Source of the DNA: a virus
Taxonomy: Duplodnaviria > Caudoviricetes
IMG/VR virus record: IMGVR_UViG_3300037424_000570
Span: 1 to 46,359 of that record
Strand: one strand, 5' to 3'
DNA: 46,359 nt
The notes beneath the pieces were generated by a model. That model was not told the origin of the DNA and did no database searches. It saw nothing but the letters and a program-made list of their open reading frames with translations. Below, piece by piece: positions 17,931-24,055 of this stretch. The number at the start of each line of letters is the position of its first letter. Positions within the stretch are counted from its first letter, which is position 1. Position numbers and translations under genes: made by a program.

Positions 17931-18172
17931 GGCTTCACCCATTCCGCGCACAACTGCGCCGCATCTGTGCCAGGTATCTCAGCCCACGGCACGCCAAAGA
18001 TACTCCCATCATCGCAGATCACCTGGCATCCACCCGCCATTGAGACGTTATTGGTATAGCCCATGTAAGTGCACGCTATCGAGCTTGCTATCTGCGTGCC
18101 AACCCATAGTCCAAATATCATGCAAAGTATCATCAGTATTATCCAGCCAATAGCATTGTCGTTCATTCTCAT
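17927..18172 (-). CDS. Small membrane protein (81 aa)
   Basis: N-terminal TM helix; AAGGA RBS. Confidence 0.55.
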   Translation of the reverse strand: MRMNDNAIGWIILMILCMIFGLWVGTQIASSIACTYMGYTNNVSMAGGCQVICDDGSIFGVPWAEIPGTDAAQLCAEWVKP

Positions 18173-21308: not shown

Positions 21309-21487
21309 TTCGTATCCTCTTTCCACATATCGTACATGCGTTCTATCCTCATCTCTATCGCCCACCAGCGCTGGCGGTAGTACTCCGCCGCCTCGTACAT
21401 CTTGCAGACGTAGTGCCATGCCGCCAGCGAGCAGTAGCGGCGGGCCAGCAACGTGTCGGCGGCGGTCAAAGTCAGGAAGTCGGACAC
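21305..21487 (-). CDS. Hypothetical protein (60 aa)
   Basis: Overlap-coupled small ORF. Confidence 0.5.
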   Translation of the reverse strand: MSDFLTLTAADTLLARRYCSLAAWHYVCKMYEAAEYYRQRWWAIEMRIERMYDMWKEDTK

Positions 21488-22008
21488 TCAAACTCCACTC
21501 GCGCCATCAGCGCCCGCTCCAGCGTGGAGCGCAGACGGGAACGGGCCAGGGATACGCGGTATTCGTCCTCGCAGGCAATCACGAACGCGTCACCGTCCAC
21601 GCGCGCAATCCACATCTCGCCAAACTGTTGACGCAGGCCACGCGGTACGTCGTTCATCACAACGTCGAAACGGCTGACTTGCATCCGGTACTTCTCCCTC
21701 ACCTCTGCCGGCGTCGGGTCCACAGGTGTCTCACGTTCATAGCTCTCTAGTATTCCCGCGGTGTAGTCCACGTGTTTACCGTTCCCGTTCTTGCCATTCT
21801 CTTTGTAGCCGTTCACCTTCCAGCGTTCCAGTATCGCTCTGGCATAACTCCACTTCCTCACGTTGTTCACGACTGCCAGTTTCACGGCCTCGACTATCCA
21901 CTCACTCGGGTACTCGTCCTCTGCGCTCATCAGCTCATCTTTTAGCAGCGGCGTTATCATGCCTATGTTCTGCTCGTATAGTAAGAAGATGTTCGCCGGT
22001 TCGTCCAC
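21472..22008 (-). CDS. DnaD-domain replication protein with C-terminal DnaA domain I-like region
   Basis: IFLLYEQNIG...EWIVEAVKLAV...WSYARAILERWK (DnaD YxxxILxxW); C-terminal FVIACEDEY..SLARSRL resembles DnaA_N. Confidence 0.8.
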   Translation of the reverse strand: MDEPANIFLLYEQNIGMITPLLKDELMSAEDEYPSEWIVEAVKLAVVNNVRKWSYARAILERWKVNGYKENGKNGNGKHVDYTAGILESYERETPVDPTPAEVREKYRMQVSRFDVVMNDVPRGLRQQFGEMWIARVDGDAFVIACEDEYRVSLARSRLRSTLERALMARVEFECPTS

Positions 22009-22009
22009 T

Positions 22010-22385
22010 TCCTCGCTCCTCTCTGGACCTCTGTTACTTTATGTTCAGGCGCAATGACCTCCCCGCGTAAGAGTACGCGGTTGAACGCTTAGTCAGGCTC
22101 GCTCGTACATTACGGATGAGCGACATCCCTCAACGCAGATCACCTGTTATTCACAGGGCGGCCCAGGTCTCGTTGATCCTTACCCTAATCTGCGAAGCTC
22201 CCCGCCTTTCGGCTACCGAGTACGGGTGTGGGCATGGTCACTAAGCGGCTCGCAAGCTCGCAGTAGATCGCATGGGTCGTCCCACCATCTGGGTTTTTAG
22301 TGCTCCATTGGCCAGCGCCTTGCAGCCTATGAGGGAGCTATGTAGTCCGGTTTGACAGTACGCATCCCCGGCTCATGGAAGCGGT
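22010..22385 (-). ncRNA. Large structured non-coding element upstream of the replication gene
   Basis: No credible ORF; at least 8 helices including long-range CGCTTAGT/ACTAAGCG and CGCAGAT/ATCTGCG, plus a GAAA tetraloop on the minus strand. Confidence 0.6.
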
Positions 22386-22811
22386 TTACTTTAGATACGC
22401 ACCGTTCTCAACCCAGTTGATGAAGCGGTCGACCAATTCAAACGTAGTCGTTTGGGTTGTTCGTGTGCGCCACTTGCCCATAAATCTGTATTCTGTGACG
22501 GTGGTGTTGGCAACGTCAATATCACCTTGTGAGTTGTGCGAGGCAATAACCGTGAGCGTTGGCTTTACTTTTTGCATGTCGTCTGTCTGTCTCTCAAGCG
22601 CCAATCGTTGCCCAAATGGAAGCTCTGCACTCTCGTACTTCGTTTCGATGTAGACATAGCAGATGTTCTTGTATTCAATCATCCCGTCTACATCAGTTGG
22701 TGTTATATTCCCGAACCGCAGCCCGCTAAAATCCCTTACTTGATTTGCGTATTCACGATTGCGGATTATGCCGCGTGTATCATTTGTATAATATGGTTCC
22801 GAACCCATCAA
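22386..22811 (-). CDS. PD-(D/E)XK nuclease-like protein
   Basis: PTDVDG...YIETK...GQ pattern. Confidence 0.6.
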   Translation of the reverse strand: MMGSEPYYTNDTRGIIRNREYANQVRDFSGLRFGNITPTDVDGMIEYKNICYVYIETKYESAELPFGQRLALERQTDDMQKVKPTLTVIASHNSQGDIDVANTTVTEYRFMGKWRTRTTQTTTFELVDRFINWVENGAYLK

Positions 22812-22841: not shown

Positions 22842-23759
22842 CTATTTGCATATTAGTGCTACCCACCCCATTTCTTTGAACTCGGCTATAAACTTTTCGG
22901 GGTGATCGCCACAATAAACAACGGCCTGGCCTTGTAGCGGTGCGCCGGAAGGCTGGCCGTATTGATCTATAAATCGAATGCGTCCTCGCGGGAACAACAC
23001 AGCAGACGCGACTGATACAAGATCGGCGAACCAGGATGTTTCGGTTGCGTTATTTACAAGAACAATGGCTTCGCTTACATCCCCACTCGCACAATGCTTA
23101 TTTAATTTGTTGGTGAATTTACCTATTAGCTCTGCGGCATAGGGTGGGTTCATCCAGACACGCCCCGCCCAGTCATGGCTCAGCCCATCATCGTACATGG
23201 TGTAATACTTATCCGCCTTGACTGTTTGATTGGCAAAGTCCGATGATGCAGGGTCGAGGTCGATGCCACCCATAACTCGGCGAGCGGCTTCGATGTATCC
23301 TTTAGGGGTGTACCACTCGTTCTCTTCGGAGTTGAAGGATACGTGGGGTCCGAGTACATAGCGGAGTAACCCAGCCTTGGTAGGTTCTACCTGTTTCTCT
23401 ATGCAGTCGTCAATGTAATCGTCAATCTCATCCAGCGATATTTCAAGTTCTTTCTTTCGCCGCTGCCATTGCATACGGGTGAAGCCGTAGTCGATCAACG
23501 TAGAGGTAACGGCATCGTTACTTCTATCGTCCCACCTGTGTGGACCATGATAAATGTTCGGCTCAACGAGTTCTGTTGTCTTGCGTCGTGCCAGGATGTA
23601 GATGCGGGAAGCCTCGACTACGCCTTCGTAATCGTTCTGTTCTTTCGCCCATGCCTTAGCAGCAGCGGCTAGGGCCTCGACTTCGTGGGATTCTTTAGGG
23701 GTATTGGCGTTCTGTAATGCAAGTTCAGCTTTCGTTATCGGTGTTATCTCAGTTTCCAT
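22842..23759 (-). CDS. Phage Dam-type DNA N6-adenine methyltransferase with helical N-terminal extension
   Basis: EWYTP, IDLDPAS, DGL, VWMNPPY, GRIRF. Confidence 0.9.
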   Translation of the reverse strand: METEITPITKAELALQNANTPKESHEVEALAAAAKAWAKEQNDYEGVVEASRIYILARRKTTELVEPNIYHGPHRWDDRSNDAVTSTLIDYGFTRMQWQRRKKELEISLDEIDDYIDDCIEKQVEPTKAGLLRYVLGPHVSFNSEENEWYTPKGYIEAARRVMGGIDLDPASSDFANQTVKADKYYTMYDDGLSHDWAGRVWMNPPYAAELIGKFTNKLNKHCASGDVSEAIVLVNNATETSWFADLVSVASAVLFPRGRIRFIDQYGQPSGAPLQGQAVVYCGDHPEKFIAEFKEMGWVALICK

Positions 23760-23899: not shown

Positions 23900-24020
23900 A
23901 AAACAAAAACCGCCTGGGCTGCATCTGTGTCTGGAAGCGCCCGCCGAAGTAGGGCATTACACAGACACAGCCCACGCGGCTATGTCCTTCGGCTACGCGG
24001 CTACCAGACCGCTCTATCTA
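23900..24020 (-). ncRNA. C4/CI-like antisense/attenuator leader RNA with intrinsic terminator
   Basis: GCGG-UCUGGUAG-CCGC hairpin whose loop complements CUUCCAGAC inside a long branched stem (23910-23979) followed by UUUUUGUUUU. Confidence 0.6.
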
Positions 24021-24026
24021 CCATGT

Positions 24027-24055
24027 AGTTTAGCATATACTCTGTCCCATGTCAA
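24027..24055 (-). promoter_or_regulatory. Sigma70-type promoter
   Basis: TTGACA-N17-TAAACT with extended TG. Confidence 0.75.

Follow-up and report, generated by a model that had tools for sequence, protein, structure and literature searches.

Structured elements located directly 5' of genes are usually cis-regulatory. During replication of ColE1/pMB1 plasmids, RNA II forms a persistent RNA-DNA hybrid and its cleavage by RNase H primes synthesis; RNA II carries a conserved G-rich hybrid-forming tract, and the antisense RNA I is transcribed from a convergent promoter. Three plasmid-replication motifs, ARRPOF, GEBRO, and PAGEV, may act as RNA or as ssDNA (Weinberg 2017, PMC5737381; PMC12990946); the structure of ARRPOF is given in PMC12990946, and ARRPOF is located in a region supporting replication without a rep gene. 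On the protein side, DDBH2, its following helix, and the tail form the DNA-binding module of B. subtilis DnaD (PMC2978336); for S. aureus DnaD, binding of PriA and ssDNA was assigned to its C-terminal region (PMC4909229).

The DNA analyzed here, called the window, is a complete virus record of 46,359 nt with direct terminal repeats, from a sediment phage. As a PHROG scan of 41 ORFs found a terminase and a major head protein to be encoded, the virus is apparently a tailed dsDNA phage of 46 kb; the same scan, in which the majority of ORFs had no family, recognized neither a helicase, primase, polymerase, or other initiator nor a reverse transcriptase or integrase. The named homologues of the DnaD-domain protein belong to Anaerolineae/Chloroflexota and, judged solely from these, Chloroflexota are the likely host group. 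On the minus strand, a gap of 377 nt (22009-22385) separates ORF 22386-22811(-) from the DnaD ORF 21472-22008(-). This gap holds no gene, in agreement with a preliminary description that had noted a GC-rich, non-coding stretch, but with a GC content of 0.56 versus 0.567 for the genome the element is not GC-rich. It is present in a single copy in its own genome; a 28-nt stretch inside a small ORF at 18006-18033 (-) matches element positions 22134-22160 at 82% (E 0.04), probably by chance. Among sequencing runs, no RNA run was listed as containing the sequence; the one DNA run, which may be its source, shows neither variants nor joints. The window showed no GC-skew switch and, as to AT-rich patches, a mild one only (GC 0.35 at 21954-21993).

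The protein encoded downstream begins at its DnaD domain and has a DnaA_N-like C-terminal end, as had been proposed. DDBH2 (Pfam DnaB_2) was matched with an E value of 7.9e-9 and contains the YxxxIxxxW motif; the protein falls in PHROG 186. When the structure model of the 178-aa protein (pLDDT 77) was searched with Foldseek, the predicted fold of the C-terminal domain was DnaA-domain-I/DciA-like, with DnaA domain I as best match (E 1.2e-3), followed by DciA (E 0.04) and none at E<=0.001; Pfam DnaA_N is matched by 2 of 10 aligned relatives. The further claim that the DNA-binding domain is missing holds for the winged-helix domain and the repeat linker, which are gone, whereas the DDBH2 DNA-binding motif is retained. 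The initiator starts with GTG, an in-frame stop lies 11 codons before it, and a separate gene for the missing N-terminal domain was not found in the genome. Relatives are mostly longer: at least 123 aa are open in frame upstream in 66/70 and 41/43 viral loci (overlapping sets), and at least 117 codons in 75 of 80 metagenome loci, 4 others being cut by contig ends; about 75 of these 80 control loci resemble cellular Chloroflexota DnaD genes and not phage genes. Among the exceptions, L070 and L407 proved on translation to be full-length genes with a frameshift, L071-L073 resemble L070, and L404 is cut by a contig end. The frameshift of L070-L073 and L407 lies in the repeat-rich linker, upstream of position 1501, and the four near-identical cases may reflect phase variation or an assembly error.

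One of the 80 metagenome DnaD loci, L146, has a similarly headless initiator. When the regions upstream of DnaD homologues were searched, as the preliminary description had suggested, the same locus was the sole one of 152 to match the element at E<0.1 (nhmmer, E 3.4e-5), and here too the element lies directly upstream of the short initiator. The two initiator proteins share 45% identity over 102 columns, and the L146 protein is without the DnaA-like C-terminal tail. Within 400 nt 5' of DDBH2, 41 of the 52 viral loci with full-length initiators have three or more near-copies of a 10-mer (downstream control, 7/56), as compared to two in the window and two in L146, a count that tracks iterons only roughly because many linker repeats are codon repeats. 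At least five other database proteins (P0163, P0172, P0166, P0174, and P0243, known as protein records) have their initial Met at this same position. In a quick, poorly resolved tree of 64 columns, whose "short" group includes three probable fragments, L146 and P0166 group with the full-length P0195/P0253 (SH-aLRT 95), while the C-terminal domain of the window protein is common to the full-length P0165/P0169. As the L146/P0166 group and the tail of the window protein point to different full-length relatives, the comparison suggests that a cassette was swapped onto different protein bodies.

Table 1. Features of the element and its neighborhood (window coordinates; changes are those between the window and L146)
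Feature	Coordinates	Strand	Remarks
Operon promoter, probable	24055-24027	-	sigma-70-like, 10/12, TG
Attenuator-like leader hairpin with U-run	within 23900-24055	-	fold z -4.4
Dam-like methyltransferase	22842-23759	-	between operon promoter and element
141-aa protein	22386-22811	-	between promoter and element; 266 database homologues, assigned to neither a Pfam nor a PHROG family
Variable 5' half; helix PX probably closes it as a domain	22200-22385	-	no similarity to L146 above shuffles (297/500 equally good)
Helix PX	22328-22324 with 22199-22195	-	5 pairs, 2 double changes and 1 wobble change; weakly aligned region
Hairpin H1	22319-22314 with 22304-22299	-	5 pairs: 1 doubly changed, 2 with wobble change; weakly aligned region
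Conserved core, ~165 nt	22036-22199	-	94/147 columns identical (64%) to L146:1408-1554
Helix Pa	22194-22187 with 22141-22134	-	8 pairs, 3 of them doubly changed; encloses small junction
Pb	22168-22165 with 22145-22142	-	invariant; in junction inside Pa
Pc	22164-22162 with 22158-22156	-	1 double change; in junction inside Pa
Small hairpin competing with Pb and Pc	22157-22143	-	3 invariant pairs; pairing probability 0.89 and 0.99
Hairpin Pe	22123-22118 with 22104-22099	-	6 pairs, 3 of them doubly changed, 0 broken; loop carries pseudoknot strand
Pseudoknot PK	loop 22114-22108 with 22056-22050	-	7 pairs: 6 invariant, 1 C-G to U-G
Hairpin Pf	22063-22080	-	pairing probability 0.89 in window
A-rich single-stranded 3' tail	22036-22049	-	near-invariant in alignment
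Ribosome-binding site	22009-22023	-	AGGAG at 22020-22016, 7 nt 5' of GTG
Truncated initiator, 178 aa	21472-22008	-	DDBH2/DnaB_2 (10-69), disordered linker, C-terminal DnaA-domain-I/DciA-like domain

Folding of the single sequence did not separate the element from chance. All stems named in the preliminary description were located, but the dense pairing that it had emphasized does not exceed that of dinucleotide shuffles (MFE z +0.78 on the plus and +0.23 on the minus strand), and none of the 60- or 120-nt windows fell below z -2.2. Exact inverted repeats of 7 nt or more number five in the element, as compared to a mean of 3.6 over 123 genome windows, 32% of which contain as many. Single-sequence pairing probabilities are mostly low for the conserved helices, so that formation of the fold would depend on tertiary contacts, on folding during transcription, or on a partner. 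From the comparison with L146, by contrast, compensatory changes became evident, so that covariation was found with one homologue. The local alignment between the window and L146 scores 72, whereas 300 shuffles reach at most 48, and the core (94/147 identical) is more conserved than the adjoining DnaD coding stretches (120/202). The consensus energy is -28.2 versus -18.9 +/- 3.8 for column-class shuffles, one of 100 being as low, and a stem of at least 6 bp with three double changes is reached by 4% of 300 shuffles, or by 1% when the 3' half is taken by itself. The 38 hand-picked pairs, those of the loop-to-tail pseudoknot among them, show double changes in 10 cases, wobble changes in 4, and no broken pair; for six helices on the full alignment, in which Pe is misaligned, 32 pairs contain 7 double and 4 wobble changes and no broken pair, a result matched by 3 of 500 shuffles. 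These change counts lean toward the model because the helices were chosen from the same two sequences on which they were scored.

Simple descent of both copies from an ordinary spacer, or from the decayed coding sequence of an N-terminal domain, with stems arising by chance, would fit the chance-level folding of the single sequence and the sample of two, yet we consider it very improbable in view of the conservation of the core beyond that of adjoining coding DNA, the consensus energy, and the 10 double changes without a broken pair. A degraded coding sequence, which the preliminary description had named as a possible objection, was rejected: N-terminal sequences of 206 relatives scored at most 20.8 bits in tblastn, within the range of 20 shuffles (19.6-25.0). 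Recoding of stop codons was likewise rejected as each frame holds all three stop types. Rfam 15 gave no match at gathering threshold over the window and none at E<=10 for 21900-22500, L146 gave five sub-threshold miRNA/lncRNA/plastid matches and nothing else, and ARAGORN found no tRNA or tmRNA gene in the window. The proposal of a structured element is thus upheld for a conserved, covarying, Rfam-negative sequence on the minus strand that precedes initiators without N-terminal domain and repeat linker. Both loci for which DNA and a headless initiator are available carry it, whereas the full-length loci and 72 phage records do not. As judged by this comparison, we take it to be a real, uncatalogued structured RNA, known in two copies and tied to the headless initiator, with a function that is inferred; its core measures ~165 nt and the whole probably ~300 nt.

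Several stems of the preliminary description reappear in the fold model. Compensatory changes support Pa (3 of 8 pairs doubly changed) and Pe (3 of 6), although for Pe the change count alone is matched by 57 of 500 shuffles, the set being small, and the small hairpin at 22157-22143 has a counterpart in L146 with three invariant pairs. For Pf, L146 has a hairpin at the same place, but sequence and length differ. The 8-bp long-range stem is not conserved as such, L146 offering a 6-bp helix in a similar place with a shifted register, and neither is the GNRA hairpin at 22213-22204 conserved as such. The pseudoknot between the Pe loop and 22056-22050, helix PX, and the near-invariant 3' tail are new; PX and H1 can form together in both sequences. 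A GCNTGA hexamer, which encodes Ala-stop in one frame, occurs twice in the core (22098-22093 and 22051-22046 (-); L146:1497-1502 and 1539-1544), the variable base of both copies being C in the window but A in L146, and the first copy ends a 5-codon mini-frame common to both sequences, which begins in the loop of Pe and lacks an SD. A 9-mer of the long stem (22248-22240, 22093-22086) recurs in the leader hairpin of L146 (L146:1116-1124, 1157-1166), and in the window its complement is found shortly upstream of the Dam-like gene (23782-23774); counts and duplex energies of this 9-mer are at chance level, and the long stem as a DNA site was rejected (7 matches versus 8.6 expected).

The assignment to the minus strand, already favored in the preliminary description, is strengthened by two invariant U-G pairs and by the fact that all four one-sided changes yield G-U on that strand, although the consensus energy of the plus strand is nearly as low (-26.4 versus -28.2). 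These data bear on the possibility that the fold acts as ssDNA, as a primosome-assembly or single-strand initiation signal for DDBH2 or PriA. DDBH2 binds ssDNA, the consensus energies of both strands are close, and plasmid motifs such as GEBRO may act in this form (Weinberg 2017, PMC5737381). However, invariant U-G pairs, single changes that are all wobbles, and the GNRA loops present in L146 are more typical of RNA, and the phage appears to be a tailed dsDNA phage of 46 kb, so that we regard action as ssDNA as improbable.

Pairing between the Pe loop and its distal strand can form 7 bp in both copies and is near-invariant; since no double change occurs among its seven pairs, support for PK comes from conservation. 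Its position is relevant for a reading in which the element is a cis-acting translational switch that doses the initiator without an origin role, which we consider a tentative but serious alternative. Pe and the pseudoknot would leave the RBS free (ON), and otherwise the 5' strand of Pe would pair with the RBS region (OFF). The element lies on the same strand directly upstream of the initiator gene with no terminator between, neither a terminator nor a processing signal being found at its 3' end; the pseudoknot ends ~30 nt 5' of the SD, and pseudoknot-activated rep translation is known (PMC8053102). Positions 22018-22013 repeat the 3' strand of Pe and are able to pair with its 5' strand; this candidate RBS-sequestering helix has 6/6 complementarity in the window and 5/6 in L146 (before AUG 1578), includes three matched double changes, and is equaled by 8 of 2000 shuffled RBS windows, and the forced ON and OFF states differ by <1 kcal/mol in the window. 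Yet the complementarity is one match among 362 six-mer pairs tested, which is about chance. Moreover, in L146 a better SD precedes AUG 1605, 27 nt beyond AUG 1578, and the OFF helix costs 3.6-5 kcal/mol above the MFE; neither a conserved antisense promoter nor a conserved leader peptide with an SD was found in the window and L146, and such a switch would leave origin recognition and the large upstream domains unexplained.

An 8-nt direct repeat brackets the element (22034-22041, 22386-22393), and excising the element gives a normal stop-SD-start gene junction. Together with the multi-helix fold, the pseudoknot, and the invariant single-stranded tail, this would suit an independent functional RNA, be it a ribozyme, a processed sRNA, an atypical intron, or a small mobile element, whose insertion at the initiator locus displaced the N-terminal domain. 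The repeat is absent from L146, however, the element is single-copy, no Rfam intron or ribozyme match was obtained, no upstream exon restores a full-length initiator, and the PHROG scan found no reverse transcriptase or transposase in the window; such an insertion therefore seems unlikely to us. A target-site duplication was rejected because of the absence of the repeat from L146 and because two other exact 8-mer repeats occur within the same 600 nt. Group I and group II introns were rejected as well, as there was no Rfam match and no upstream coding trace, and the helix order, compared by eye, did not fit that of the catalytic cores.

The layout of L146 is the same as that of the window, with a sigma-70-like promoter (L146:1039-1067) and, behind it, a strong leader hairpin that bears a U-run (z -4.4). 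In L146 the element comes directly after promoter and leader, whereas in the window the genes for the Dam-like methyltransferase and the 141-aa protein intervene; it is thus the initiator gene, and not the promoter, that the element accompanies. A second folded stretch precedes the Dam-like gene within 24055-23757 (-); this promoter-leader region has no Rfam match and aligns only weakly by position with L146:1039-1200 (E 8.1), and the leader is probably an attenuator at the head of the replication operon. Pairing of the element with the operon 5' leader was rejected, as 12 of 60 and 19 of 60 controls were equally good. L146 also contains (L146:1-292 and 198-1022) an array of at least seven dual-repeat 36-nt units and beside it a gene whose product has a Transposase_20 (IS110-like) domain alone, an arrangement that resembles a TIGR-Tas locus.

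Further copies were not obtained. Covariance models of the core had no match in a first set of 49 phage records or in a later one of 72, almost all of which encode DnaD initiators of full length. When viral contigs were scanned for motifs, only chance matches were among those listed (80 of at least 120 loci examined in one scan), and a scan of GTDB genomes gave 13 matches, all by chance. In GenBank phages, blastn with the window or L146 copy as query yielded only chance matches, and blastn of 72,556 plasmids yielded one 40-nt chance match (E 0.3). Model R2 had one chance match in 149 genomes of one phylum, inside an aldolase-like ORF, and a model search of 93 genomes from another phylum gave chance matches only, both phyla being other than Chloroflexota. 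Locus L163 was rejected as a further copy because its score arises from selection by the same motif. Literature listings and text passages, including those of preprint 10.64898/2026.09.22.753630, showed no description of the element.

The reading that we prefer, with a probability of roughly 0.40, is that the structured RNA occupies an exchangeable slot for the origin and guides the truncated initiator. The RNA would be transcribed with the early/replication operon, in the slot otherwise occupied by the winged-helix domain and the repeat-rich linker, and would take over origin marking from the lost protein part. It would fold during passage of the polymerase, forming Pa, Pe, and the pseudoknot, and might stay at its own locus, where it would either form an R-loop, in the manner of ColE1-type primers, or tether the newly made initiator. 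DDBH2 would then bind the opened single strand and recruit the host helicase-loading machinery, and the DnaA-domain-I/DciA-like tail of the window protein may assist helicase loading; as the L146 protein is without such a tail, DDBH2 would have to be the shared partner. In favor of this origin module, the element seems to co-occur exclusively with short initiators in the loci examined, no other origin-binding protein was found, and apparently the same RNA stands before two differently built protein bodies. Against it, a single shared origin of the short form could explain the co-occurrence without any function, and an unrecognized origin-binding protein could exist, because most ORFs of the genome have no family. 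We consider it possible but doubtful that, in a family of phages, a cis-encoded pseudoknotted RNA has taken the place of both the winged-helix domain and the iterons, with the RNA providing origin specificity and a stand-alone DDBH2 protein coupling it to host helicase loading. The preliminary description had let the element specify or prime the origin; neither a conserved G-tract nor an origin signature was found, and a cis-regulatory role is about equally likely. The origin role and the role as translational switch are not mutually exclusive.

The analogy to ARRPOF and GEBRO drawn in the preliminary description can be kept as an analogy. ARRPOF, GEBRO, and PAGEV have an average size of 223-349 nt, are pseudoknotted, are linked to replication on a mobile element, and have no proven function, and the element resembles them in these respects. 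Unlike these plasmid-borne motifs, the element is phage-borne, has no Rfam match at gathering threshold or at E<=10, and is tied to a headless DnaD-type initiator with its RBS, whose DnaD homologues point to Chloroflexota. With ColE1/pMB1 RNA II it would share the principle that a folded cis transcript could define an origin without an encoded origin-binding protein. It differs in that it directly precedes the gene for an initiator fragment, that no G-tract is common to both copies and no origin transition was found, and that there is no RNA I promoter, the one 9/12 plus-strand site being at chance level and without a counterpart at the matching place of L146. Like the rep leaders of IncI1, IncB/O, and IncL-M plasmids (PMC8053102; references in PMC10724649), it has a hairpin loop able to pair with a distal strand a short way 5' of the initiator RBS. 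Unlike them, it has no plasmid sequence similarity, its PK strand lies ~30 nt before the SD, large extra domains lie upstream, and neither a coupled leader peptide nor a conserved antisense RNA was found, the shared mini-frame being without an SD. If it were only a translational switch, it would still be an uncatalogued pseudoknot regulator of a phage initiator with DnaD relatives from Chloroflexota.

Phage replisome organizers and DnaD-like initiators (PHROG 186 and 6251; Pfam DnaB_2) have in common with the window protein DDBH2 with its YxxxIxxxW motif; the C-terminal DnaA_N-like domain is found as in P0237 and P0218, and the place in an early operon is that of phage initiators. Unlike nearly all relatives with DNA context, the window protein is without the N-terminal part of 120-260 aa and the repeat linker. 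Whereas the replication-linked motifs ARRPOF, GEBRO, and PAGEV have no known mechanism or protein partner, the element comes with a candidate, a DDBH2 protein of 98-178 aa, and with a natural control, the full-length relatives that have a winged-helix domain and no RNA. As partner candidate and natural control both exist, the replacement of the initiator's origin-binding domain by an RNA is directly testable with a cassette of ~1 kb and, if true, it would amount to an RNA-specified, protein-assisted phage origin, of a kind undescribed so far.
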